A stretch of DNA of 64,000 bases, from assembly GCA_963668625.2 (NCBI GenBank), contig CAXXKA010000006.1, positions 288,001 to 352,000 on the forward strand, read 5' to 3'. Numbering within the stretch: position 1 is the stretch's first letter; every line of letters starts with the position of its first letter. Below the pieces are notes generated by a model that ran no database searches, was not told the origin of the DNA, and worked only from the letters and a program-made list of their open reading frames with translations. Origin of the DNA: an uncultured candidate division Zixibacteria bacterium. Lineage in GTDB: Bacteria; Zixibacteria; MSB-5A5; UBA10806; 4484-95. Below are positions 1,633 to 41,395 of this stretch, one piece after another. Made by a program: the position numbers and the translations under genes.

Positions 1633-3015
1633 ATGAGTATCCCTTACACAAGTGTACTCTTAAAAGAAAATTATTTTACCAAGCAAAATATATTATTATT
1701 TTCAATTATTCCTTTAATTTCAGCAATTTCAATAATTTCTATCGGATATATAAAACCTTTTTTAATACTATTAGGTTTAGCTGTAGTCGTTATAGGTATT
1801 TTTAATACTAAGTACTTTTTATACTTATATTTATTCTTATTACCCTTCACTTTTATATTCAAATTTTATATAGGCCTTACCCTGTCCCAATATGGATTGA
1901 CAACTTTTTATATAGCTATATGGTTAATGAATGTAATACTGACCAAAAAACGAATTAATTTTCCTCCTCGATGGATGGTGATATTCATTTGTTTATTCGT
2001 AACCTGGTCATTTGTGTCTGACCTTCACGCCGGCATAGGAATTTTACAAGTAAGAACTATAGCATCAAATATAATATTCTTTATTTTCGTAATTGCTCTA
2101 TATGATGTGATTACGGTAGAAAAATATATTGAAATGTATTGGGTCGTGATTATCCCTTTCATATTTGTATTTCTTTTTACATTTATCAAACTACTGGCTG
2201 CCGGCAGTATATTTAGCATGATTTACATGGTGTTAACGAAAGGGTGTGATGATATATTGTATCCTAATATGATCGGCGGAATTTATTTGTTGTTTTGGCC
2301 GATTTCGTTTGCTATGTATCTTTACGAAAAGAATAAAATACGCAGAATTGTATATTTGACTATTGCAATAGCTTTTATCATTGGGATAGTATTGACAAAT
2401 ACGCGCTCAGCATATCTGGGGACATTCGTTGCTATCTTGTATTTTATCTGGTTCTCGAAGAAACGAATGATATTGTTAGGTAGTATGGGAATTATAACAT
2501 TAATTTATTTATTATCGCCAGTTGCATCCATCGTAAATGAATTACTTTTAAGGGTGGAGGCCGGTGTATCTGGTAGGGATATTGTATGGGATGTAGCATT
2601 CAAGCTGATTAAAGAGAACTATATTTTTGGGATCGGATCATATACTTTGCAAATGATAATTAATTATAAATATCCCTTAATGACTTATCAAAATATTTTG
2701 CCACTCATTCGCAATGCCCATAACTACCCGATAAATATGACTCTTCAGATGGGAATTCCGGGATTCTTTTTCATTATATATATATATTATAAATTTGCCA
2801 GGATATCTATTATGGGCCAACTTGCCAACACTGACAATAAAATCAGGGCATTATGTATGGGGAGTGCTTCAATTATGCTTGGTATGTTTGCAAGAGGCAT
2901 GTTTGAAGCTATTGGTATTATAGATAATGGTGTTATATTTCCTCATATTTATTTCTGGGTAATAATGTTATTTACGGTGAAGATATTCAATGGCGAACAT
3001 AAAAAAAAACCTTGA
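1633..3015 (+). CDS. O-antigen ligase/Wzy_C-family polytopic membrane protein
   Basis: Many hydrophobic segments; T-x-T-R-S-A, GR-x-x-W, FGIG and AHN motifs; low GC. Confidence 0.75.
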   Translation: MSIPYTSVLLKENYFTKQNILLFSIIPLISAISIISIGYIKPFLILLGLAVVVIGIFNTKYFLYLYLFLLPFTFIFKFYIGLTLSQYGLTTFYIAIWLMNVILTKKRINFPPRWMVIFICLFVTWSFVSDLHAGIGILQVRTIASNIIFFIFVIALYDVITVEKYIEMYWVVIIPFIFVFLFTFIKLLAAGSIFSMIYMVLTKGCDDILYPNMIGGIYLLFWPISFAMYLYEKNKIRRIVYLTIAIAFIIGIVLTNTRSAYLGTFVAILYFIWFSKKRMILLGSMGIITLIYLLSPVASIVNELLLRVEAGVSGRDIVWDVAFKLIKENYIFGIGSYTLQMIINYKYPLMTYQNILPLIRNAHNYPINMTLQMGIPGFFFIIYIYYKFARISIMGQLANTDNKIRALCMGSASIMLGMFARGMFEAIGIIDNGVIFPHIYFWVIMLFTVKIFNGEHKKKP

Positions 3016-3084
3016 ATATCTCTGGTGATGGATCGCAGGTTTAATGTCTATTCAAATATCTCAGAGTAAAGAACTAATAATATT

Positions 3085-4611
3085 ATGAGACATAATCGCA
3101 ATATTTCTGATAAACAAATCCAAGATATTTTATTACTACTCATTGTAATATCCTTTACCATAACAGTGATTACTATTATTTATGGGATACTACAAGGTTC
3201 ATCGCTCAATCATGTCTCCGGCACTTGGATAAGTCTAGCGTTGGATTTAAGTGATGGTGTATTATATCGTCCGCTATTTTCCGAAACAATCGGTTTTGGC
3301 GGAACTCGTTTTTTCCCGTTATTTTTTTCAATTCATGCATTGTTAATTAAGTTTTTTAATATGCCGATATTGACCGGTCATTTGGTAAGCCTATTTTCCG
3401 GTTTGCTTCTATTTGGGGCTTGCTTAATTCTATTTAGGCAAATGAAAATAAGTATTATTATTGCTGTTGGCCTTTTAGCAATATTGTTTTCCGAATTGAG
3501 TATTAGGTTCGGTATGACCTCAATCCGCGCTGATATTCTGCCGGTTGCCTTTAACGTTATCGGGATAGCCAGTATATTATCAAATCTGGATAAAAAATAT
3601 AAACTGATCATAGCATCTATATTTTTCACGCTGGCATTTTCGGCAAAGATAACAGCTGTTCATGGTATAGTATCCGTGTTTTTATGGTTACTATTTAACC
3701 GTAAAGTGAACGAGGCATTTAAGCTACTGGTATTCACTTCACTCGGTTATGTACTATTTTTAGCCATCCTATACATTGGAACCTCAGGGAGGATTATACC
3801 GATATTTAGTACTTGTTCCTCGGGAGGCACGGAATTAATGTCTATTTTAAACGCGCCAATAATATTTGCCAAGATCATATTGAGGCGGGATATTATAGGA
3901 TTAGTATTTCTAGTTTGGATATTTATCATACTATATAGTAAAAGAAAGAATGTTTTAAATGACTTATTTTTTATTTTCTGGATAGTTTCAATCATGATTA
4001 CGGTTGTTATTTTAGGTTCTCCCGGTACCGATTATAATCACTTTGTCGATTTTGCGACCGCGTCTATTATATTAATTGCTTCAAGGGGATTTATGATTAT
4101 GCCTAAAATCACTAAATATAACTTATCTCTTTTTGTGGTTTTTCTTGTAGTTGCAATCGTGTATAATTCTATTTCGTTATATTCATTGTTTGCCGATGAG
4201 AACAATCGTATGGCTAAACATTATCCCGAAGAGGTCGTTGATTTCATTAAGTCTGAAGATGGTATCGTAATATCCGAGGATCCCTTGTTTCCACTATTGG
4301 CGGATGAACATCCTTATCTATTAGACGCATTCATGCTTCGTTTTATCCTGCTAAAAGATGAAAAAATTAAACTGGTATTAATTAATAAAATCCAAAATAA
4401 AGAGTATTCTGGAATAATATTTAATAAAAACCCGGTTGAGGATATTGAAGGTTATAATAATGCGCATTTTGGATTAGAGTTTACTCAAGCTGTTATTTCT
4501 AATTACACTTTAGGATTCAAAACGGGAGATTATTTTGTCTACTTGCCAGATTTTTTAAAACCTGATGAGAATAAAAAAGCAGAGACGCGGAATCCTATCA
4601 ACGGTCAATAG
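3085..4611 (+). CDS. Polytopic membrane protein, probable GT-C-fold glycosyltransferase
   Basis: Multiple TM segments, LYRP..FFPLFF luminal loop, R-A-D motif, C-terminal soluble domain; low GC; next to Wzy_C gene. Confidence 0.5.
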   Translation: MRHNRNISDKQIQDILLLLIVISFTITVITIIYGILQGSSLNHVSGTWISLALDLSDGVLYRPLFSETIGFGGTRFFPLFFSIHALLIKFFNMPILTGHLVSLFSGLLLFGACLILFRQMKISIIIAVGLLAILFSELSIRFGMTSIRADILPVAFNVIGIASILSNLDKKYKLIIASIFFTLAFSAKITAVHGIVSVFLWLLFNRKVNEAFKLLVFTSLGYVLFLAILYIGTSGRIIPIFSTCSSGGTELMSILNAPIIFAKIILRRDIIGLVFLVWIFIILYSKRKNVLNDLFFIFWIVSIMITVVILGSPGTDYNHFVDFATASIILIASRGFMIMPKITKYNLSLFVVFLVVAIVYNSISLYSLFADENNRMAKHYPEEVVDFIKSEDGIVISEDPLFPLLADEHPYLLDAFMLRFILLKDEKIKLVLINKIQNKEYSGIIFNKNPVEDIEGYNNAHFGLEFTQAVISNYTLGFKTGDYFVYLPDFLKPDENKKAETRNPINGQ

Positions 4612-25738: not shown

Positions 25739-26266
25739 ATGGCTAACAAACTGGTTATGAAAAAAACAAGCTCGCCTTATATAGTCGTCAAAAAATCAAG
25801 CATCCACAGCAAGGGGGTTTTCGCTAAAAAGGATATCCCCGCCGAAACCGAGATCATCGAGTATGTCGGCGAACGTATCACCAAGAAAGAGGCTGATATT
25901 CGCGGCGAGCGGGTGTTGAGCAGGTCCAAAACCGATGTTACCCGTGGAGCTGTTTACATTTTCGAGCTCAACAAGCGTTTCGATATCGATGGCAACGTGT
26001 CGTGGAACACAGCCGGTATAATCAACCACTCCTGCGATCCAAACTGCGAGGCGGTCAACATCGATGGCCACATCTGGATCTGCTCCAAGCGAGATATCGA
26101 CAAAGGCGAGGAACTGACCTACAACTACGGCTACAATTTCGACAACTACGAGGAGCACCCTTGCAGATGCGGTTCCGATAATTGTGTTGGCTTCATCCTG
26201 GATGAGGAACAATGGCCAAGACTGAAACGCGAGTTGGCGAAAAAGGCGAAGGCGGGGAAGAAGTAA
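25739..26266 (+). CDS. SET-domain protein-lysine methyltransferase with post-SET Cys cluster
   Basis: SSIHSKGVFA, IIEYVGE, INHSCDPN, GEELTYNY, CRCGSDNC. Confidence 0.92.
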   Translation: MANKLVMKKTSSPYIVVKKSSIHSKGVFAKKDIPAETEIIEYVGERITKKEADIRGERVLSRSKTDVTRGAVYIFELNKRFDIDGNVSWNTAGIINHSCDPNCEAVNIDGHIWICSKRDIDKGEELTYNYGYNFDNYEEHPCRCGSDNCVGFILDEEQWPRLKRELAKKAKAGKK

Positions 26267-26487
26267 CGGTATAATTGTTCGTTTTGGTTAATATCTCATT
26301 ATTGATAATTGAAAATGTAATATAACGATAAGAGGCGGGACATTCTTGTCCCGTATAAGAACTGTAAGTAAGGATAAATCGAGGTGAAGTTAATTATGTT
26401 TATTATAATCAAATAATATATCTCACAGTAATATAAGTAAGGCACTAAGCGATTTGTTAGATTTTAGTTTTAAATACGAAGATTGAG

Positions 26488-27267
26488 GTGATTATGTGTA
26501 TTGAAAAACCTCTAAATGAGATTTTGAGGCAGGATTTCATTGAAACTTATAAACTTGAAGTCAAAGTAATATGGGATCAAATAGTAGTACTGAATTCATA
26601 TTTATATATTCTAAAAACAATATTAAAGTTTCCTTTATCATTATTCAAGCCATTAAAACTTCTATTTTGGAGATTGGTAGTAAGAAGCCTGTATGAATCA
26701 TCAATCTTAATTTGTTTTAAGTTGATTTTTGATACTGATAGTAAATCTTTAACAATTTCTAAGTTAAAAAACAAGATTATTAGTAATCTTGTTGATGATA
26801 GTATTAAATCTGAAGTCATACAAAATTTAAAGCAAATTGATTTTAGCAAAAAGAATGAAGAATTAGGTAGAAGAATTAATAAAATTAGAAATAAATTCGT
26901 TGCTCATATTGATCGAGATTGGAATACTATAGTAGAAAAAGAAAGCTTGAATGATATTGTATTAAATTTTAATGAATTATTCGAACTAAGTGAATCGATT
27001 GATGAATTATTTGAAATTCTTTGTTTTAATGAGCAGAGATTGACTCATTATCCAGAATATGCGCCTTCTAGCAAAGTTAAATACCAAACTAGACAAGAAA
27101 CGGATATTGAAGAAATATTATTACTATTAGTTAAGAACAGTAATCTTCTAAATATGCCCGAAAGCCAACCAGCTTTTTGGCCAATTTATAAAAAAACGAA
27201 TTTGTCTTTAGATGATTTAGAATTACTCAATCAGTATCGAAATAGGTTTGGTTTGCCTGATGCTTAA
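26488..27267 (+). CDS. HEPN-domain protein (AbiU2-like), putative RNase
   Basis: RNKFVAH (Rx4-6H) motif in an all-helical-looking protein; very low GC relative to flanks. Confidence 0.55.
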   Translation: MIMCIEKPLNEILRQDFIETYKLEVKVIWDQIVVLNSYLYILKTILKFPLSLFKPLKLLFWRLVVRSLYESSILICFKLIFDTDSKSLTISKLKNKIISNLVDDSIKSEVIQNLKQIDFSKKNEELGRRINKIRNKFVAHIDRDWNTIVEKESLNDIVLNFNELFELSESIDELFEILCFNEQRLTHYPEYAPSSKVKYQTRQETDIEEILLLLVKNSNLLNMPESQPAFWPIYKKTNLSLDDLELLNQYRNRFGLPDA

Positions 27268-27286
27268 CATCGTAGATCAGGTTCCC

Positions 27287-27419
27287 CTGGTTCCAAAACT
27301 CCGATTTTGAACACCACTGTATTCTAAAAATTTCGTTTTGATTTTTTATAACCTGCAAGACTAAATCGAAACAGAGTTTCTCAAACACGGTCATTCCCAA
27401 ATCGCAGTTTGGGAACGAG
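27287..27419. repeat. REPIN/MITE-like element with terminal palindromes
   Basis: CTGGTTCCAAAACT...AGTTTGGGAACGAG inverted ends (12/14); internal GAAAC-AGA-GTTTC hairpin. Confidence 0.55.
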
Positions 27420-27484
27420 TTGATAATTATTTATATAGAGTTTCATTCATACTGACATATCCTGCCGATGATAGGCTTGGTTTC

Positions 27485-27582
27485 CTGGTTTCCAAGCGCT
27501 GCTTGTAAACCTTCTTGAGTCATGTAGAATGCGCATTCTGCAGGCAAACAAGCCACGTTGCGAAGCAGCGCTTCGCAACGAG
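27485..27582. repeat. Second REPIN/MITE-like element of related design
   Basis: CTGGTTTCCAAGCGCTGC...GCAGCGCTTCGCAACGAG inverted ends (15/18); right end is itself a hairpin. Confidence 0.5.
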
Positions 27583-27783
27583 ATGGAAAGACCGGACAGT
27601 AGTGTTGTAAAAAAATGATATACATCTTTTTAATATTAATCTGAGCTTCTAATGTAACGATATTAGGACTAATCGGCCTCATTATTAACACTAAAGCGTT
27701 CACATTGAGACCTGTTACATATTTCCCTTGCCCTTGAACTTAATATGTATTAAAATCACCCGAAATTGATTATATGAATATAA

Positions 27784-29079
<1,296 letters not shown>

Positions 29080-30461: not shown

Positions 30462-31778
30462 GTGGCTAAGAAGAAAAAAAGTGTCGACCCCTTTATGGAT
30501 AAGTTAGTCTCGCTGTGCAAACGGCGGGGATTCGTATTTCAATCCTCAGAGATCTACGGCGGTCTCGGCTCATGCTGGGATTACGGTCCGCTGGGCGTCG
30601 AATTGAAAAATAATATCAAGCGATTTTGGTGGGAGGTCATGACCCATCGTCGGGATGATGTCGAGGGTGTAGATGCCGCTATCCTGATGTCGCCGAAAGT
30701 CTGGGAGGCTTCCGGTCATGTCGAGGGTTTCACCGATCCGATGGTCGACTGCAAAAAATGCAAGCGCCGTTTCCGTGCCGATACGCTAGAGTCCGAGAAT
30801 TGTCCCGAATGCGGCGGCGAGTTTACCGAACCGCGCCAGTTTAATTTGATGTTCAAAACATTCATGGGCCCGGTCGAGGATAGCTCGGCAACAGTATATA
30901 TCAGGCCGGAAACCGCCCAGGGGATCTATGTCAATTTCCAGAACGTGATGGGGCCATCCAGGCAGAAAATTCCGTTCGGTATAGCTCAGATCGGTAAAGC
31001 GTTCCGTAATGAGATAACCCCCGGTAATTTCATCTTCCGTACCCGTGAGTTCGAGCAGATGGAGATGCAGTTTTTCGTTCATCCCTCCGAGGATGCCAAA
31101 TGGTTCGACTACTGGAAAGAACAGCGCTGGAACTATTATCAGGAGCTTGGTATCAGGCAGGATAAATTAAGATGGCATGAGCACGGCAAAGATGAGCTGG
31201 CTCACTACGCCAAAGCCGCCTACGATATCGAGTACGAATTCTCGTTCGGTTGGAAAGAGATCGAGGGAGTGCATAATCGTTACGATTACGATTTGACCGC
31301 CCATATCAAGCATTCCGGCAAAGACCTGCGTTATTTCGATGACCAGGCTAAAGAACGCTATGTCCCATATATTATAGAAACCTCCGCAGGCGCCGACCGT
31401 ACCGCGCTGGTGTGCCTGGCCGATGCTTACCGCGAGGAGGAGGTTAAGGGGGATACACGAGTGTCGCTTAGCCTCTCGCCCAAAATCGCCCCGATAAAGG
31501 CCGCTGTATTCCCGCTGGTTAAAAAAGAGGGCATGCCGGAGATAGCCCAGAAAATCTATCAGGATTTAAAAAAGCATTACAAGGTGTTCTATGATGCCGG
31601 TGGGGCTGTCGGCAGACGCTACCGTCGCATGGATGAGGCCGGTACGCCATACTGTATCACTGTAGATGGCCAAACCAAAGAGGATGAGACGGTTACGGTA
31701 CGTGAGCGCGACAGCATGGAGCAGAGCCGGGTTAAAATTGATGAGTTGGTTGATTTGGTAGGGAAGAGGATAAAATAA
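30462..31778 (+). CDS. glyQS: Glycyl-tRNA synthetase, homodimeric type
   Basis: [48 protein letters not shown]. Confidence 0.96.
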
Positions 31779-31970: not shown

Positions 31971-32246
31971 GTGGCAAAAGCGACCGATATACTTAAGAGA
32001 TGGCGGGATTATATTCAGCCACAAGAAGATTTTGATGAAATAGTAAAAGTATTGGAATATTATGGATTTGAAATCAGGCCTGGTAAGGGAAGTCATTGGG
32101 TTGTTAATCATAAAGATTTAGACCGGGAAAAATGCAAAGAATTAGGTGGGAGAAGTGAGTTTACCGTTCCCACAATAAAGGGTCGCAAAGTAATTAAAGT
32201 GTATGTGAAAAGAATACAAAAATATATCGATCTATTGGAGAAATAA
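31971..32246 (+). CDS. hicA: HicA-family mRNase toxin
   Basis: 91-aa basic protein, LEYYGF..GKGSHW catalytic His motif, TVP, VYVK. Confidence 0.8.
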   Translation: MAKATDILKRWRDYIQPQEDFDEIVKVLEYYGFEIRPGKGSHWVVNHKDLDREKCKELGGRSEFTVPTIKGRKVIKVYVKRIQKYIDLLEK

Positions 32247-32774
32247 ATGAGTAGTCAATTAAAAGATTTAGCTAAATACATGGCATATAACTACCCAATA
32301 GAGATACTGAAATTGGATGATAACGATGGCGGAGGTTACATTGCAGAAATCCCTTTTCTGGGCAAGGATGCTTTTACCGGACATGGTGAGACAGTCGAAG
32401 AAGCATTAATAAGCTTGAATGAAATTAAAGAATTTTTATTTGAAGATTATCTTAAAAACGGCATAGAAATTCCTCCTCCGCCAAAAGATGAAAATTATAG
32501 CGGGAAATTCGTTGTTCGTGTACCAAAATATTTACATCGTGCTCTTTCGGATAAAGCCAAAACTGATGGCGTTAGCTTGAATACCCTATGCGTTTCTCTA
32601 TTAAGTCAAGGCTACGGTGTTGATGATATTAAAAAATATTTTGAGACAATGTGTATAGAAATGAGAGGAATAAAATCTAAAATTGAGCAATACGCTTTCT
32701 CTGAAGATCTGATAGAACCGTTTCCTCGCAATGTAGCTTATTTCCCATCAAAGGATTTAAAAAATGCCTCGTAA
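32247..32774 (+). CDS. hicB: HicB-family antitoxin with RHH domain and C-terminal extension
   Basis: GGYIAEIP..GETVEEA..IPPP, YSGKFVVRVPKYLHRAL..GVSLN. Confidence 0.85.
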   Translation: MSSQLKDLAKYMAYNYPIEILKLDDNDGGGYIAEIPFLGKDAFTGHGETVEEALISLNEIKEFLFEDYLKNGIEIPPPPKDENYSGKFVVRVPKYLHRALSDKAKTDGVSLNTLCVSLLSQGYGVDDIKKYFETMCIEMRGIKSKIEQYAFSEDLIEPFPRNVAYFPSKDLKNAS

Positions 32775-33213
32775 CTATGAATATAATATATCACCAGAAG
32801 ATTATCAGGAAATCCTTAAGGATTTAGAAATTCGATCATTATCTCTTGTAGATTTGTCATATAGTTGTTTAAAGGATGAAGTTGAAAAGAATCCCGTAAA
32901 GCTCGATTTAAAAACTGATGCGTCATTAAAAAAGCAAGCGGAAGGCATTGCTACTATTATATATAATTTCACTTTAACAGGTATGATTAAACAGAAATCA
33001 GCATTAAAGATAAGTGGCAAATATTTTGTTGAATTTAATACGGTAAGTGAAGTAACTAAAGAATTTCTGGAAGTATTTAAAGAGTATTCCTTAAGGCTCC
33101 TGATGACACCTTATTTGAGAGATTTATTTTATAATTTATCCATGCGTTCTGATTTACCTGGTATTGTACTCCCGTTAATGAAATTCTTCCCAACCGATAA
33201 AAAACTGGCATAA
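32764..33213 (+). CDS. SecB-like chaperone of a TAC system
   Basis: 149 aa, beta-strand pattern, C-terminal PYLRD...LPGIVLP signature of SecB-like proteins; overlaps the hicB stop. Confidence 0.7.
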   Translation: MPRNYEYNISPEDYQEILKDLEIRSLSLVDLSYSCLKDEVEKNPVKLDLKTDASLKKQAEGIATIIYNFTLTGMIKQKSALKISGKYFVEFNTVSEVTKEFLEVFKEYSLRLLMTPYLRDLFYNLSMRSDLPGIVLPLMKFFPTDKKLA

Positions 33214-33242
33214 AAAAAGCGGAAGTTACCCCTCCGCCTTTT
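33214..33242. terminator. Bidirectional terminator
   Basis: A-run, GCGGA..TCCGC stem, T-run between convergent genes. Confidence 0.6.
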
Positions 33243-33265
33243 GCGCATTGCCCTCCCTGGCGTTG

Positions 33266-33817
33266 CTAGAAATCTAATTTTACATTATCTGTCTTTTCAA
33301 ATAGGTATTGGCCAGCGCCTACGAATATCCTGAAACTGGTTGGCGATAATTGCTCGTATTCCGCGAAATAATCACGCTCGCCATTGGGTTGGAAATATAT
33401 ATCGGTTATCTGGAAATCATACTTACCTTTCTCGGTAATATCACCCTCGATATTGTCATTTATCATTATCCAGTATCGGTTATTGGTAAATTTTGCCATG
33501 GCTATTTTCGTATTGGCGCCTTTGAGTACTCCCAGGTATGTGCCATTGGGCCTTATGGGGTTCTGTGATGCTTTAGGCTCGTACTCCTCGGGCGCTACCA
33601 TTTTCATGACCTGTTTGTAGATATCTTCATCTGTCCCCAACTCTGGAGTGTCTTCCTGCATCAACTTGCTTACCTGTTCCTGTCGCTCGAATATGAATTT
33701 CTTTTGCTGTTCGATTTTAGGCTTAACCTTCTCGTAACCCTTGTCGGTAACATAAGTCCAGGCGAACATCAACAAAGCAAATGTTACCAGCGAGGATAAT
33801 ACTATTCTCATATTCAT
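33266..33817 (-). CDS. Hypothetical membrane-anchored protein
   Basis: 183-aa ORF, N-terminal TM helix, GGAG RBS. Confidence 0.65.
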   Translation of the reverse strand: MNMRIVLSSLVTFALLMFAWTYVTDKGYEKVKPKIEQQKKFIFERQEQVSKLMQEDTPELGTDEDIYKQVMKMVAPEEYEPKASQNPIRPNGTYLGVLKGANTKIAMAKFTNNRYWIMINDNIEGDITEKGKYDFQITDIYFQPNGERDYFAEYEQLSPTSFRIFVGAGQYLFEKTDNVKLDF

Positions 33818-34017
33818 ACGATCTCCTGACTGGTTTCTTTTACTTTGTATCGGTAATTGTCAAATTATTTTTAGGATTATATAGGATTATAAATGTTGGA
33901 TGTATCGAGGTTGACATGATATGAGTTTATAGCGTCCCATTGTTATATTATTCGGATACCGGGGAATATAATTCAATCGTGCGGCATCCAGGCTTCGAAA
34001 ATTAGGAGAGATGGGAA

Positions 34018-37429: not shown

Positions 37430-38515
37430 ATGACATACGACCGCTCTAAACCATATAACGATTTACCGCTCCTGCCACCGAGGGCCGAGATCGAAACGAA
37501 AGCCGTTCTCAAAAAGTGTATTGATGCCAACAAGGCCCTGGCCGAGTTGAAAGGCGCCGGCGATTTGATACCCAACCAGGCGATTTTGATTAACGCTATC
37601 CCTCTTCAAGAGGCGAAAATGAGTTCGGAGATCGAGAATATCGTGACCACCCAGGATGAACTATTCCGGGCGGCTATGGGGGATTCCTCCAGCGTTAACC
37701 CGGCCACTAAAGAGGTTGTCCGCTACAGAACCGCCTTGCGCTATGGTTTCGAGCAGGTTATGACCGGTGAACTGACCATGGAACTGTTGGTGAAACTCTG
37801 CGGGATTATCCGTAACGAGGAGGACATGACCATCCGCAATAACGAGGCGATTATCATACAGAACAGCGCTACCGGCGAGACTATATACACACCTCCACGA
37901 GGATTCGAGATCATACAATCGAAACTTCAGAACCTGGTTGAGTTTTTGGCTATGCAAGATCAACTCGATCCGTTGACCAAAATGGCAGTATCGCATTATC
38001 AATTCGAGGCAATTCACCCGTTTGAGGACGGCAATGGCCGAACCGGGAGAATCCTCAATATATTGTATCTTCTACAAGAAAAGATGTTGAACCTGCCTGT
38101 TCTGTACTTGAGTCGATTTATAATAGAGAATAAACAGGATTATTATAAGAAAATCCGGGCCGTAACCGAATCGGGGCAATGGGAGGACTGGATACTATAT
38201 ATATTGTCAGGTGTCGAACAAACCGCAAAGTGGACAACTGGCCGAATTAACGCCATTCGAGAGTTATTCGAGGCCACGGTCGAATATTGCCGTCAGTACT
38301 TGCCTTCTAATGTCTATTCCAAAGAGTTGATTGAACTTATATATGCCCAACCATATTGTAAAATCAAGTTCCTGGTAGATAAAGGCATAGCCAAACGCCA
38401 GGCGGCCTCGGAATACCTCAAGGAATTCGAGAAAATCGGCGTATTGAAAGGCGAAAAAAGGGGGCGAGAGGTTATCTATAAGTATCCCAAGCTGTTAGAG
38501 GTTTTGAACAAGTAA
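37430..38515 (+). CDS. fic: Fic-family adenylyltransferase (class II, SoFic-like, C-terminal HTH)
   Basis: HPFEDGNGRTGR catalytic motif, SSEIEN inhibitory motif, PYNDLPLLPP N-terminus. Confidence 0.92.
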   Translation: MTYDRSKPYNDLPLLPPRAEIETKAVLKKCIDANKALAELKGAGDLIPNQAILINAIPLQEAKMSSEIENIVTTQDELFRAAMGDSSSVNPATKEVVRYRTALRYGFEQVMTGELTMELLVKLCGIIRNEEDMTIRNNEAIIIQNSATGETIYTPPRGFEIIQSKLQNLVEFLAMQDQLDPLTKMAVSHYQFEAIHPFEDGNGRTGRILNILYLLQEKMLNLPVLYLSRFIIENKQDYYKKIRAVTESGQWEDWILYILSGVEQTAKWTTGRINAIRELFEATVEYCRQYLPSNVYSKELIELIYAQPYCKIKFLVDKGIAKRQAASEYLKEFEKIGVLKGEKRGREVIYKYPKLLEVLNK

Positions 38516-38525
38516 TAAATTTGCC

Positions 38526-38731
38526 ATCGACATATATTTGTAATATGTCGATATTTTGAGTAATTATCGACATGTTATAGCGATATACCATTTCATCGAC
38601 ATGTTTTTGAGATATGTCGATAAAACTTCCACAGATCGACATATCTTGTAGAAATATACATTTCATCGACATATTTATATGACATGTCTATATATATATT
38701 CTTAATCGACATGATTTCATAATGTGTCGAA
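38526..38731. repeat. About 70-bp-period array of ATCGACAT motifs and ATCGACAT-N11-ATGTCGAT palindromes
   Basis: ATCGACAT at 38526, 38566, 38595, 38635, 38665, 38705; inverted copies at 38545, 38614, 38684 (1 mismatch), 38724 (2 mismatches). Confidence 0.8.
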
Positions 38732-38796
38732 AAAGAAGTGTGATATTCTTTTATCACTTTACCGAATATACATTTGAATGTATTTTCATTTTCTAT

Positions 38797-38840
38797 GCGG
38801 GAGTAGCTCAGTTGGTAGAGCACCCATCTGGGTTGTCGTG
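38797..38840 (+). pseudogene. tRNA-Gly 5' fragment, copy 1 (anticodon arm replaced)
   Basis: 26 nt identical to tRNA-Gly start, then CCCATCTGGG, then TTGTCGTG. Confidence 0.8.
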
Positions 38841-38857
38841 GACAATACTTAACTTGT

Positions 38858-39145
38858 ATGTTATATTATACTTACGTTTTATATAGTCTAAAAGATGGTA
38901 AATTATATATAGGCTCTACCTCAGATATTCTCAGGCGTATATCCGACCATAATCGAGGCAAGGTGAAATCTACCCGATACAGAGTGCCTTTTAATCTAGT
39001 GCATTATGAATCATTTGACTCTAAATCCGCATCACTAGCTAGAGAGCGAGAGTTAAAAAGTATCAAGATGCGTGATTTTAAGCGGGAACTGCGCAGTCAG
39101 GGCAAATTCGGTCAATTTTTATCACTTGACGATTTAACTAATTAA
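38858..39145 (+). CDS. Small GIY-YIG nuclease (UPF0213/SLX1-like), copy 1
   Basis: YTYVL..LYIGST..RR..HN.G..ST....P..LV.YE......A...E..LK. Confidence 0.9.
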   Translation: MLYYTYVLYSLKDGKLYIGSTSDILRRISDHNRGKVKSTRYRVPFNLVHYESFDSKSASLARERELKSIKMRDFKRELRSQGKFGQFLSLDDLTN

Positions 39146-39164
39146 GTGTATTTTTATTTTCTAT

Positions 39165-39208
39165 GCGGTAGTAGCTCAGTTGGTAGAGCACCCATCTGGG
39201 TTGTCGTG
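39165..39208 (+). pseudogene. tRNA-Gly 5' fragment, copy 2
   Basis: GCGGTAGTAGCTCAGTTGGTAGAGCA (one G>T change), then CCCATCTGGGTTGTCGTG. Confidence 0.8.
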
Positions 39209-39225
39209 GACAATACTTAACTTGT

Positions 39226-39513
39226 ATGTTATATTATACTTACGTTTTATATAGTCTAAAAGATGGTAAATTATATATAGGCTCTACCTCAGATATTCTC
39301 AGGCGTATATCCGACCATAATCGAGGCAAGGTGAAATCTACCCGATACAGAGTGCCTTTAAATCTAGTGTATTATGAATCATTTGACTCTAAATCCGCAT
39401 CACTAAATAGAGAGCGAGAGTTAAAAAGTATCAAGATGCGTGATTTTAAGCGGGAACTGCGCAGTCAGGGCAAATTCGGTCAATTTTTATCACTTGACGA
39501 TTTAACTAATTAA
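39226..39513 (+). CDS. Small GIY-YIG nuclease, copy 2
   Basis: As copy 1 with F>L, H>Y and A>N changes. Confidence 0.9.
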   Translation: MLYYTYVLYSLKDGKLYIGSTSDILRRISDHNRGKVKSTRYRVPLNLVYYESFDSKSASLNRERELKSIKMRDFKRELRSQGKFGQFLSLDDLTN

Positions 39514-39532
39514 GTGTATTTTCATTTTCTAT

Positions 39533-39576
39533 GCGGGAGTAGCTCAGTTGGTAGAGCACCCATCTGGGTTGTCGCG
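39533..39576 (+). pseudogene. tRNA-Gly 5' fragment, copy 3
   Basis: 26 nt identical, then CCCATCTGGG, then TTGTCGCG as in the intact tRNA. Confidence 0.8.
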
Positions 39577-39593
39577 GACAATACTTAACTTGT

Positions 39594-39893
39594 ATGTTAT
39601 ATTATACTTATGTTTTATATAGTCTAAAAGATGGTAAATTATATATAGGCTCTACCTCAGATATTCTCAGGCGTATATCCGATCATAATCGAGGCAAGGT
39701 AAAATCTACCCGATACAGAGTGCCTTTTAATCTAGTGCATTATGAATCATTTGACTCAAAATCCGCATCACTAGCTAGAGAGCGAGAGAGTAAGCAAGAG
39801 TTAAAAAGTATCAAGATGCGTGATTTTAAGCGGGAACTGCGCAGTCAGGGCAAATTCGGTCAATTTTTATCACTTGACGATTTAACTAATTAA
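39594..39893 (+). CDS. Small GIY-YIG nuclease, copy 3 (in-frame 4-aa insertion SKQE)
   Basis: As copy 1 plus a 12-nt insertion and several synonymous changes. Confidence 0.9.
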   Translation: MLYYTYVLYSLKDGKLYIGSTSDILRRISDHNRGKVKSTRYRVPFNLVHYESFDSKSASLARERESKQELKSIKMRDFKRELRSQGKFGQFLSLDDLTN

Positions 39894-39902
39894 GTGTATT
39901 TT
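39874..39902 (+). promoter_or_regulatory. sigma70-like promoter for tRNA-Gly embedded in the GIY-YIG 3' end (repeated in each unit)
   Basis: TTGACG-N17-TATTTT ending 10 nt before the tRNA 5' end. Confidence 0.6.
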
Positions 39903-39912
39903 TATTTTCTAT

Positions 39913-39985
39913 GCGGGAGTAGCTCAGTTGGTAGAGCAGTAGCCTTCCAAGCTACTTGTCGCGAGTTCGAACCTCGTCTCCCGCT
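39913..39985 (+). tRNA. tRNA-Gly(TCC)
   Basis: GCGGGAG/CTCCCGC acceptor, GTAGC-CTTCCAA-GCTAC anticodon arm, TTCGAAC T-loop; no CCA. Confidence 0.96.
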
Positions 39986-39994
39986 TTGTTATCC

Positions 39995-41395
39995 TTAACT
40001 GAAATCCTTGCCTAATAGTATCACCGCTAAAATCACCGCTAATATCGCGATCGGGGCGGTAAATCTTATAAAGAATCTGAACATCTTATATACGAAAGTA
40101 GGATTTCCGTTTTTATCATACATTCCCAGTTCTTTCTCGACAATCTTTTTATCCAGTGTCCAGCCGACGAATATAGTAATTAATAATCCGCCCACCGGCA
40201 ACATCCAGTTGGCTGCGAGATGATCGAGGGTGCTTAATATACCCTCTTTGCCGGGGCCAAATATCGACCAGCTCGATAGAAAGCCAACCGCGCCAAGCGA
40301 TAACGCCGATAGTATAGAGACAAAATATGCCAGACCAGCGCCAATTAAAGTTGCCGTGTGGCGTTTTACGCCTAGCTTATCGATGAATAGTGATACTATC
40401 ACCTCCAGCAAAGAAATAGTGGAGGAGAGGGCGGCGAATGCCACCAGTATATAAAATATCGGGGCGATTATCGGTCCGAATGGAATGTGAGTGTAAAGCA
40501 AATCGGGAAGAGTGATAAACAGCATTCCAACGGTCGAACCGGATACGCTTTCAGCCACCTGTGGAACCGAGAATATGATCGTATACATGATTATACAGGC
40601 GCATATAGCGACGAAAGTATCCAGGAAAACCACCATAGTCGCGTTGCGTGCAATCGATTCTTTTTTGCTGATATATGAACCGTAGGTTATCATCACGCCC
40701 ATACCCAGCGATAGAGTAAAGAATGCATGACCAACTGCCTCAAGCACTCCCTCCCAGGGAAGCTGTCCGAAATTCGGCCTGAAAAGAAACTGGAAAGTTT
40801 GTTCGCGGCCGGGTAGAAACATGACCATAATTACCAGGTAAATAAGTATTAAAAACAAAATCGGCATCAGTATTCGTGTCGATTTTTCGATACCCTTGTT
40901 AATTCCGCGCCAGACAATGAATGCCGTGGCGGACAAGAACAGGAATGAGAGTAACAATTGAAGCCGGCCGTTGCCGATGAATTCACCGAAAGCGGTATCC
41001 GGCGGTTTGACATATCCGGAGATACTCCATCTGATGCAATCTATGAATGAGGTTATTGTCCAACCGGCTATAACCGAGTAATATCCGAGGATGACGAAAC
41101 CGGTGAGCACTCCCAGCCAGCCGACCAGGCTCCAACCTTTGGTGCTGATTTTCTCGAATGCCGGCACAGGGCTTTCCTGTGTTTTGCGGCCGATCAGTAT
41201 TTCGGCCATCATGATAGGCCAACCGATAAGCACCACGCTTATCAGGTAGACTATAACGAATGCGCCGCCATTGTTATGCCAGGTGATATAAGGGAATTTC
41301 CACAGATTGCCAAGGCCAACCGCACTGCCCGTGGCTGCCAGTATGAATCCGATTTTACTGCGCCAATGATCTCGCTCTGTTTGTTGCATCCTCAC
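39995..41395 (-). CDS. Neurotransmitter:sodium symporter (NSS/LeuT) family transporter
   Basis: W.SK.GFILAA.GSAVGLGNLWKFPY, GGAF, FFTLSLGMG..ITYGSY, AALSS.ISLLE. Confidence 0.95.
   Translation of the reverse strand: MRMQQTERDHWRSKIGFILAATGSAVGLGNLWKFPYITWHNNGGAFVIVYLISVVLIGWPIMMAEILIGRKTQESPVPAFEKISTKGWSLVGWLGVLTGFVILGYYSVIAGWTITSFIDCIRWSISGYVKPPDTAFGEFIGNGRLQLLLSFLFLSATAFIVWRGINKGIEKSTRILMPILFLILIYLVIMVMFLPGREQTFQFLFRPNFGQLPWEGVLEAVGHAFFTLSLGMGVMITYGSYISKKESIARNATMVVFLDTFVAICACIIMYTIIFSVPQVAESVSGSTVGMLFITLPDLLYTHIPFGPIIAPIFYILVAFAALSSTISLLEVIVSLFIDKLGVKRHTATLIGAGLAYFVSILSALSLGAVGFLSSWSIFGPGKEGILSTLDHLAANWMLPVGGLLITIFVGWTLDKKIVEKELGMYDKNGNPTFVYKMFRFFIRFTAPIAILAVILAVILLGKDFS

Follow-up and report, generated by a model that had tools for sequence, protein, structure and literature searches.

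Why should a gene for a very small nuclease stand three times in a row in front of a transfer RNA (tRNA) gene? The question is raised by a stretch of 64,000 nucleotides (nt), here called the window, from an uncultured candidate division Zixibacteria bacterium (GenBank assembly GCA_963668625.2, contig CAXXKA010000006.1, positions 288,001 to 352,000 of the forward strand). In it, three GIY-YIG nuclease genes, each led by a fragment of tRNA-Gly, stand upstream of the sole tRNA-Gly(TCC) of the genome (46 tRNAs in 4.3 Mb). From sequence comparison we put at about 0.5 the probability that this is a three-unit array of a tRNA-gene-resident, hairpin-linked mini-nuclease cassette, one that spreads or multiplies by recombination between tRNA-derived repeats. 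Behind this reading stand the anatomy of the array, a widespread tRNA-linked family with hairpins that replace tRNA arms, relatives in which the site is empty or holds a relic, and a gene kept under purifying selection. Positions given below are those of the window unless a contig is named.

Anatomy of the array

A single tandem array was found at 38779-39938 (period 368, 3.1 copies, 96% matches, score 2114; Tandem Repeats Finder), and a repeat search places the left edge of the repeat already at 38749, within a promoter. The units are 94-99% alike, and each is bounded by direct repeats of about 74 nt that consist of a promoter and the front of the tRNA. An initial annotation, made from the letters alone, had described three units of 368, 368 and 380 bp with tRNA-Gly 5' ends and GIY-YIG frames of 95-99 amino acids (aa); repeat, open reading frame, Pfam and tRNA searches bear this out, with start-to-start spacings of just these lengths and one frame per unit, of 95, 95 and 99 aa (Table 1). 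Bases 1-26 of the tRNA recur at 38797, 39165 and 39533 with identities of 26/26, 25/26 and 26/26. The same annotation took the 61-nt leader to be these 26 bases plus unrelated sequence, a description that has to be replaced: a 10-nt mini-hairpin, CCCATCTGGG, is swapped for the 17-nt anticodon arm and is followed by TTGTCG(T/C)G, which corresponds to tRNA bases 44-51. In G001, a relative of the same genus, the identical construct goes on with tRNA bases 45-58, and so enters the T loop, ahead of the gene. Since homology runs on past the arm-replacing hairpin, and to base 58 in G001, the duplicated piece of tRNA goes beyond base 26 and reaches the T loop. A new promoter and tRNA front close each unit, so that the last one would restore a complete, expressed tRNA-Gly(TCC). 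The proposal that an inserted unit keeps the tRNA intact by means of a spare promoter and 5' end has stood up, whereas entry after base 26 has not.

A promoter had been assigned to each unit as well. The promoter-like site TTGACG-17-TATTTT precedes units 2 and 3 and the true tRNA; unit 1 has a diverged native version that the promoter scan does not call, its position being the homologous offset to the called sites. In alignment, the -35 element and spacer of this native version have diverged from the internal copies, after which the common TGTATTTTCATTTTCTAT follows. Promoter-like sites are not enriched overall (10 vs 6.6 +/- 2.4 in shuffles). A second such site, TGGACA-17-TATATT (38839-38867 and its repeats), overlaps the start codon and was taken as chance.

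The non-coding part of each unit is only about 80 bases long. When 38300-40100 was searched with Rfam (E<=1), the sole match was the true tRNA; the pseudo-tRNA copies do not score as tRNA, and neither an intron nor another RNA family was found. Folded as DNA on both strands, the 61-nt leader does no better than shuffles (z -0.15), and as both leader and mini-hairpin fold like shuffled sequence, no stable structure is claimed in the window. Among the 17 frames of at least 110 aa scanned with Pfam at 27.8-50.3 kb, about 10 kb around the array, there is no integrase, transposase or reverse transcriptase (nine frames outside that scan are overlapping frames or tuf, nusG, rplK and rplA). Together with the Rfam search, this upholds the earlier statement that these enzymes and an intron core are absent nearby.

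Could one unit have been expanded to three by mis-assembly? No read or contig examined spans the whole array, and the stretch is present in two of four sequencing runs, all of one study; no RNA run was found to contain it. Against an artefact, the units can be told apart by a 12-nt indel and by differences at specific sites, and short-read contigs from the probable source sample agree at every position with unit 1 and with two junctions, unit-2/3 and unit-3/tRNA. The contig carrying the unit has about twice the depth of its flanks (6.5 vs 3-4.3 and 12.8 vs 3.7-7.1), a depth that is not a copy number, and arrays recur in other genomes. Mis-assembly is, in our judgement, extremely unlikely.

The nuclease

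Copies 1 and 3 match the Pfam family GIY-YIG (PF01541) at 56.5 and 58.2 bits, with a cut-off of 22.6; these two copies were the ones scanned, copy 2 being three residues off copy 1. In an alignment of 26 homologues, Y6, Y17, H31 and E63 are invariant and R27 nearly so. An AlphaFold model of the array protein (pLDDT 95.4) has the alpha/beta GIY-YIG fold, and the closest folds are those of the UPF0213 protein BH0048 (42% identity, 76 columns) and of Slx1 nuclease domains (30-38% identity), with TMq about 0.6; the I-TevI catalytic domain is a weak structural match. The best sequence matches among solved structures are likewise UPF0213 proteins, BH0048 (1zg2) and EF2693 (1ywl), with E values of 1e-9 and 4e-6. 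UPF0213 and Slx1 are thus nearest to the array protein by sequence and fold among solved proteins. To our knowledge, UPF0213 has no established function or tRNA linkage. Slx1 works with Slx4 and has a RING/PHD domain, which is absent from the array protein. Judged from the Pfam match, the catalytic residues and the predicted fold, the nuclease looks intact. The GIY-YIG domain and a short tail fill all 95-99 aa and leave no room for a separate DNA-binding domain. Two further database comparisons were uninformative, namely a group-I-intron-endonuclease match in NCBIfam that stays below threshold (18.7 bits vs a cut-off of 56) and weak 'homing endonuclease' matches in PHROGs.

Compared with the homologue in G001, the gene has dN 0.33 and dS 1.75 (dN/dS about 0.19). 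Within the array, copies 1 and 3 are separated by four synonymous and no non-synonymous changes, copies 1 and 2 by three residue changes and no synonymous ones. As read from the comparison with G001 and from that of copies 1 and 3, purifying selection acts on the GIY-YIG gene. The three array copies are the only small GIY-YIG frames in the genome; the one other GIY-YIG match to Pfam belongs to a frame of 619 aa outside the array.

A family linked to tRNA genes

Is the tRNA linkage peculiar to this locus? Homologues occur in 51 of the 61 genomes of the same class (this genome counted), and 18 of the 29 best same-class loci have a tRNA or transfer-messenger RNA (tmRNA) gene, the nearest one lying on the gene's strand. 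A broader set of 80 loci, from species-representative genomes, covers Zixibacteria, Ignavibacteria, Bacteroidota, many Patescibacteria, Margulisbacteria, Omnitrophota, Chloroflexota and others; the pattern used to draw it, a peptide pattern built on seven close sequences of the tRNA-Gly clade, makes it a biased sample. The nearest tRNA or tmRNA gene is at most 50 nt away in 31 of these 80 loci and at most 300 nt away in 55, on the same strand in all but one. As a yardstick for chance, about 0.7% of the positions of this genome lie within 300 nt of a tRNA (arithmetic from its size and tRNA number). Among 102 non-redundant loci, a same-strand tRNA lies within 400 nt in 65, and 50 of the 65 have extra partial copies of that tRNA. 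The idea of a recurrent tRNA-linked cassette, as opposed to a one-off duplication, has accordingly been borne out by the 300-nt count and by the partial copies.

The partial copies break at preferred places. Among the breakpoints of class-I tRNA copies, the borders of the anticodon arm account for 28 ends out of 59 (bases 24-30) and 21 starts out of 58 (bases 42-48), and the T loop for a further 15 ends (bases 54-60) and 16 starts (bases 53-61). Hairpins with a [CT]CC(C)G stem reach 2.45 per kb within 300 nt of the gene (53/102 loci), compared with 0.16 per kb more than 700 nt away (16/102 loci), a near-to-far ratio of about 15. Hairpins and breakpoints alike were counted with purpose-written scripts. 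A palindrome replaces the anticodon arm in 10 loci, for instance TCCCGACCTTCGGTCGGGA, CCCCGATTTCATCGGGG and CCCCGCCTCGGCGGGG, and at the tmRNA and several tRNA-Gly loci the hairpin is located in the T loop. The hairpin, being enriched near the gene, travels with it, and the tRNA pieces are copied from the local tRNA.

In a gene tree of 81 proteins, the label of the neighbouring tRNA changes 22 times, two more than the fewest possible (20) and below the range of 37-47 seen over 200 shuffles. Some clades join different phyla at one tRNA type, such as Bacteroidota and Calditrichota at Pro(CGG). Relatives share labels, so the fit between tree and label does not prove target specificity.

Arrays are found beyond the window too: homologues form tandem pairs or triples at 12 places, spread over 11 genomes out of the 60 others in the class (table count), and also at a locus in a Prolixibacteraceae metagenome-assembled genome of the Bacteroidota (L053). 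The latter (1380-2330) has three tandem units of about 358 bp, each with tRNA-Pro(CGG) and a GIY-YIG gene. What has given way to CCCCGCCATCGGCGGGG in the second and third units is the D arm and not that of the anticodon, yet ARAGORN still calls both as tRNAs. At two other loci (L011, 1029-1800, and L109), a small GIY-YIG gene lies directly 3' of a tmRNA gene. The gene in L011 is flanked by copies of the tmRNA 3' end, and the T loop there holds a long GC-rich insertion.

Occupied, empty and relic sites at tRNA-Gly(TCC)

Two layouts occur in the tRNA-Gly(TCC) clade. In layout A, pseudo-tRNA, gene, promoter and true tRNA follow one another (this window, G001 and L010); in layout B, the order is true tRNA, gene, pseudo-tRNA (L005-L009 and L041). 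Empty sites had been suggested as something to look for in relatives, and they exist: across 24 relatives the tRNA-Gly(TCC) site is occupied in 6, gene-less in 13 and relic-only in 1. In ten of the empty loci, nothing of the cassette is left in the 200 nt to either side. The one relic is a gene-less pseudo-tRNA whose hairpin is TCCCGCCTTCGGCGGGA.

Layout B bears on a different reading of the leader, in which its tRNA likeness would be a signal at the level of RNA, for processing or stability (a substrate of RNase P or RNase Z), by which the nuclease mRNA, made from a tRNA promoter, would be released or marked. Such a device would suit the layout-B relatives, where the gene has a true tRNA on one side and, on the other, a full-length pseudo-tRNA whose acceptor stem is intact, the C(UUCG)G-type loops of some replacement hairpins, and the tRNA-type promoters with which the units begin. 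The pseudo-tRNA of the window, on the other hand, lacks the 3' half of the T arm and the 3' strand of the acceptor stem, is not scored as a tRNA and folds no differently from its shuffles; moreover, Nm SsnA, a related enzyme discussed below, is described as not binding RNA (PMC11893778). We consider an RNA-level device very improbable.

Synteny with G001 extends through cysE (74% nucleotide identity); G001 lacks the Fic gene that lies beside the array in the window and has one full unit and, at the far end, the 3' remnant of another. Two metagenome contigs (L151 and L152) have the cysE-linked layout, each with one unit and a far-end remnant. G001 was found by protein search, L151 and L152 by an exact metagenome match to the hairpin; as the hairpin was itself the query, its identity in these two contigs is no evidence of conservation, and only G001 counts. 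The GIY-YIG frames are intact in all four clade members. Unit number varies, with three here vs one plus a remnant in each of the other three, so that the search for copy-number differences proposed at the outset has been answered both by arrays elsewhere and by differing unit counts among close relatives.

It could be argued from the same material that the gene landed once by tRNA-Gly and that unequal crossing-over or replication slippage made the array, the nuclease being uninvolved and perhaps inert. Long direct repeats around every unit and close likeness between units are what this explanation expects; copy 2, all of whose changes are non-synonymous, the insertion in copy 3, and the vertical inheritance of the site within the clade can be added on its side. 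Frames that are intact in four clade members and a gene under the constraint measured against G001 argue otherwise, and chance duplications would not give the same architecture and a shared hairpin at many tRNA types and in many phyla. A passive relic therefore strikes us as improbable.

Some fragments lie elsewhere in the same genome (G000). A gene-less relic at C4:248560-248731 (minus strand), just after tRNA-Ala, has the hairpin TCCCGCtagtaaGCGGGA joined to a copy of the T loop and acceptor 3' end of tRNA-Ala. Partial tRNA copies are found at two more places, C5:204082 (bases 1-27, 590 nt behind tRNA-Arg) and C6:768630 (some 1 kb behind tRNA-Pro).

Relation to named systems

The closest named systems are the Ssn/SRM pairs and SegB of phage T4, and neither has the cassette layout. 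The initial annotation, which knew of no named system of this kind, was correct as to the layout, but it passed over close named relatives in the Ssn nucleases with their hairpins and in SegB, as far as the published accounts of these go (PMC11893778, PMC2330249). Literature searches found no published description of tRNA-embedded mini GIY-YIG cassettes.

Ssn enzymes are described as single-domain GIY-YIG proteins of 94 aa that cut only single-stranded DNA (ssDNA), a few bases upstream of a hairpin repeat, and their genes are flanked by those same repeats, NTS/SRM (Chenal et al. 2025, PMC11893778). The main text of that paper never mentions tRNA, and in 12 of its 14 supplementary files 'tRNA' occurs only in gene descriptions. 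Like Ssn, the array protein is a single-domain GIY-YIG enzyme (95-99 vs about 94 aa), and the genes of its family are flanked by GC-rich hairpins whose core, YCCCG..CGGGR, resembles that of the published motif. Unlike those of Ssn, the cassette hairpins are built into partial copies of the neighbouring tRNA, in which they replace an arm; the motif flanks (HGTCWY .. RNCYNB) are missing in the window, and the best solved-structure match of the array protein is UPF0213 and not a named Ssn. More distant homologues (L025, L028, L029 and L031) are flanked by Ssn-type hairpins.

Compared with this genome, an Ssn-like gene from the same bacterial family has no matches but the three array copies (42-44% identity, E 5e-12), a result that serves as a proxy for Ssn (cd10448) membership, its query being a homologue with motif-like hairpins and not Nm SsnA. 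The array copies are thereby the only Ssn-like genes of the genome. Scattered outside the window are 21 hairpins that belong to the motif type published for Ssn (TGTCATCCCGG..CCGGGATCC). Examples, written as TGTCATCCCGG..CCGGGATCCAGGG, are found at G000:C6:138876-139248, C5:113999-114183 and C1:9788, and some of the hairpins are in tandem with a spacing of about 186 bp.

With such hairpins in the genome, the nuclease could be a domesticated one of Ssn type that serves the host, for example by cutting incoming or mobile ssDNA with dispersed hairpins; it would be parked under strong tRNA promoters, and the array would be a matter of dosage. The dispersed repeats and the restriction of Ssn-like genes to the array speak for this, as do purifying selection and a site held across the clade, and a single-domain enzyme of 94 aa, Nm SsnA, is reported to modulate transformation (PMC11893778). 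The array hairpin differs from the dispersed repeats, though, and domestication leaves unexplained both the different tRNAs in many phyla, with their matching partial copies and arm-replacing hairpins, and the empty sites and relics. We think it unlikely, although with a good deal to be said for it.

SegB is a free-standing GIY-YIG homing endonuclease encoded in a tRNA gene cluster of phage T4, and it recognises a conserved T-psi-C stem-loop motif of tRNA genes (PMC2330249). The resemblance lies in a GIY-YIG gene among tRNA genes, in the many cassette junctions that fall in the T loop, and in presence and absence being patchy among relatives. As a phage enzyme, SegB has several domains, cleaves double-stranded DNA and is passed on in phage crosses, whereas the array protein is a catalytic domain alone, of 95 aa, in bacterial chromosomes, and its cassette brings tRNA pseudo-copies, hairpins and tandem arrays and is rare in phage records.

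Other comparisons can be dealt with more briefly. An intron-encoded homing endonuclease was rejected, there being no group I or II intron core in the Rfam search of 38300-40100 and so few non-coding bases in each unit. A phage origin was set aside, relatives being few in phage records and viral contigs. Integrase-borne elements at tRNA sites use an integrase and duplicate the tRNA 3' end. The cassette is like such islands and prophages in being inserted at a tRNA with a replacement piece that keeps the tRNA intact, and unlike them in duplicating the promoter and the 5' part of the tRNA and in measuring only about 370 bp. The array does not have the marks of such an island: no integrase is found in the 17 frames scanned at 27.8-50.3 kb, and the duplicated piece is the 5' part. 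The Ssn authors draw an analogy to REP/RAYT, in which a small nuclease gene accompanies hairpin repeats recognised as ssDNA (PMC11893778). Unlike this domesticated system of IS200/IS605 type, the cassette has a GIY-YIG and not an HUH fold, and REP elements are without a tRNA scaffold.

How the cassette could spread and multiply

The favoured explanation, a cassette resident in tRNA genes, can be set out as a series of steps. The nuclease would be directed by structure or by a hairpin, as Ssn is on ssDNA, and would cut or nick the DNA of the tRNA gene or its own hairpin. The break would then be repaired by homologous recombination, with the tRNA-derived repeats as homology arms. In-register repair from a copy that bears the cassette would convert an empty tRNA gene, a homing-like form of spread. 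Units would be gained or lost where repair goes out of register or where crossing-over between the repeats of about 74 nt is unequal. The expected outcome would be arrays stacked against a regenerated tRNA, with decaying remnants at the far end. Far-end remnants are present in all three of the clade relatives (3/3), which is in keeping with arrays that grow beside the tRNA and decay on the opposite side. Self-amplification by nicking, as first suggested for this locus, is plausible; a domesticated nuclease fits the age of the site and the purifying selection equally well.

Several points weigh against such a cassette. Plain unequal crossing-over can yield an array without any nuclease. The 95-aa protein lacks the separate DNA-binding domain of SegB-type homing enzymes, and the mini-hairpin is weak as DNA (-1.9 kcal/mol, z -0.46 vs shuffles). 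The published Ssn hairpin pattern has no match in the array (38000-40200), the mini-hairpin being without the motif flanks. Not every copy need be active, given the three residue changes of copy 2 and the four-residue insertion of copy 3 beside the catalytic Glu. Four taxa share the cassette beside cysE; it is old at that site and ancestral to a clade of at least four taxa, and purifying selection fits a gene useful to the host as well as it fits a selfish one. Gene-tree clades largely track host groups, a pattern that may reflect vertical descent with losses as well. Relatives are few in phage and viral collections (6 of 50,697 phage records, plus 7 viral-contig loci), and no transfer vehicle is evident there.

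More tentatively, and with some doubt on our part, the family could represent a new class of minimal mobile element. In this proposal, a catalytic-domain-only GIY-YIG enzyme and a conserved GC-rich hairpin would colonise tRNA and tmRNA genes across many bacterial phyla, with the hairpin swapped for an arm, part of the tRNA duplicated, tRNA sequence serving as homology arms that the element takes along, the tRNA promoter put to use for expression and arrays formed from the regenerated target. If this is true, tRNA genes host widespread, overlooked and very small selfish or semi-domesticated elements that have no integrase or transposase. Such elements would account for many 'pseudo-tRNA' fragments, and for assembly breaks at tRNA loci, in uncultivated bacteria. 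They would also give a testable role to a large orphan group of GIY-YIG (UPF0213-like) proteins of about 90 aa and would extend the Ssn principle of hairpin and nuclease to tRNA-shaped DNA. Enzymes that recognise tRNA-gene hairpins in ssDNA could serve as tools.

Features and genomic neighbourhood

Table 1 Parts of the array and of the adjoining tRNA gene, in window positions.
Feature	Position	Strand	Remarks
Native tRNA-Gly promoter region, unit 1	38749..38796	+	Left end of repeat, TTTTATCACTT
Pseudo-tRNA-Gly 1	38797..38840	+	tRNA 1-26 (38797-38822), CCCATCTGGG (38823-38832), TTGTCGTG (38833-38840), the last resembling tRNA 44-51
GIY-YIG gene copy 1	38858..39145	+	95 aa; PF01541 E 3.6e-15; last ~13 codons overlap next promoter copy
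Unit-2 promoter-like site	39126..39154	+	TTGACG-17-TATTTT; 9/12 consensus positions
Pseudo-tRNA-Gly 2	39165..39208	+	GCGGTAG variant, 25/26 over tRNA 1-26; identical mini-hairpin
GIY-YIG gene copy 2	39226..39513	+	95 aa; F45L, H49Y and A61N vs copy 1
Unit-3 promoter-like site	39494..39522	+	Promoter scan
Pseudo-tRNA-Gly 3	39533..39576	+	TTGTCGCG, exact tRNA 44-51
GIY-YIG gene copy 3	39594..39893	+	99 aa; PF01541 E 1e-15; vs copy 1, 4 synonymous differences and in-frame 12-nt insertion (SKQE) after residue 65
Promoter-like site of true tRNA	39874..39902	+	Inside 3' end of GIY-YIG copy 3
Intact tRNA-Gly(TCC)	39913..39985	+	Called by both ARAGORN and Rfam (70.6 bits)

The order of genes around the array is cysK, cysE, the Fic gene, the array, tRNA-Gly, an SNF-type transporter on the opposite strand, tRNA-Thr, tuf and ribosomal genes. 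Behind the Fic/SoFic-like gene (37430-38515), the stretch 38520-38740 contains at least four palindromes, ATCGACAT-N11-ATGTCGAT, which are possibly operator sites. In three relatives, cysE is directly followed by cassette remnants, and it therefore seems that the Fic block of this genome was inserted there, where the array ends on the side away from the tRNA.

Eight kb upstream of the array, at 30462-31778, lies a class II tRNA-synthetase gene with an anticodon-binding domain, whose product, read from its domains, is probably glycyl-tRNA synthetase. A functional link between this gene and the array was considered and dropped, as there is no evidence for one and the proximity is probably a coincidence. 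Most of the window has a G+C content of 0.47-0.50, and three stretches are low in G+C (0.34-0.36), at 2001-4000, 26001-28000 and 32001-34000. The third of these contains, besides frames that have no Pfam match, a HicB-like gene at 32247-32774.

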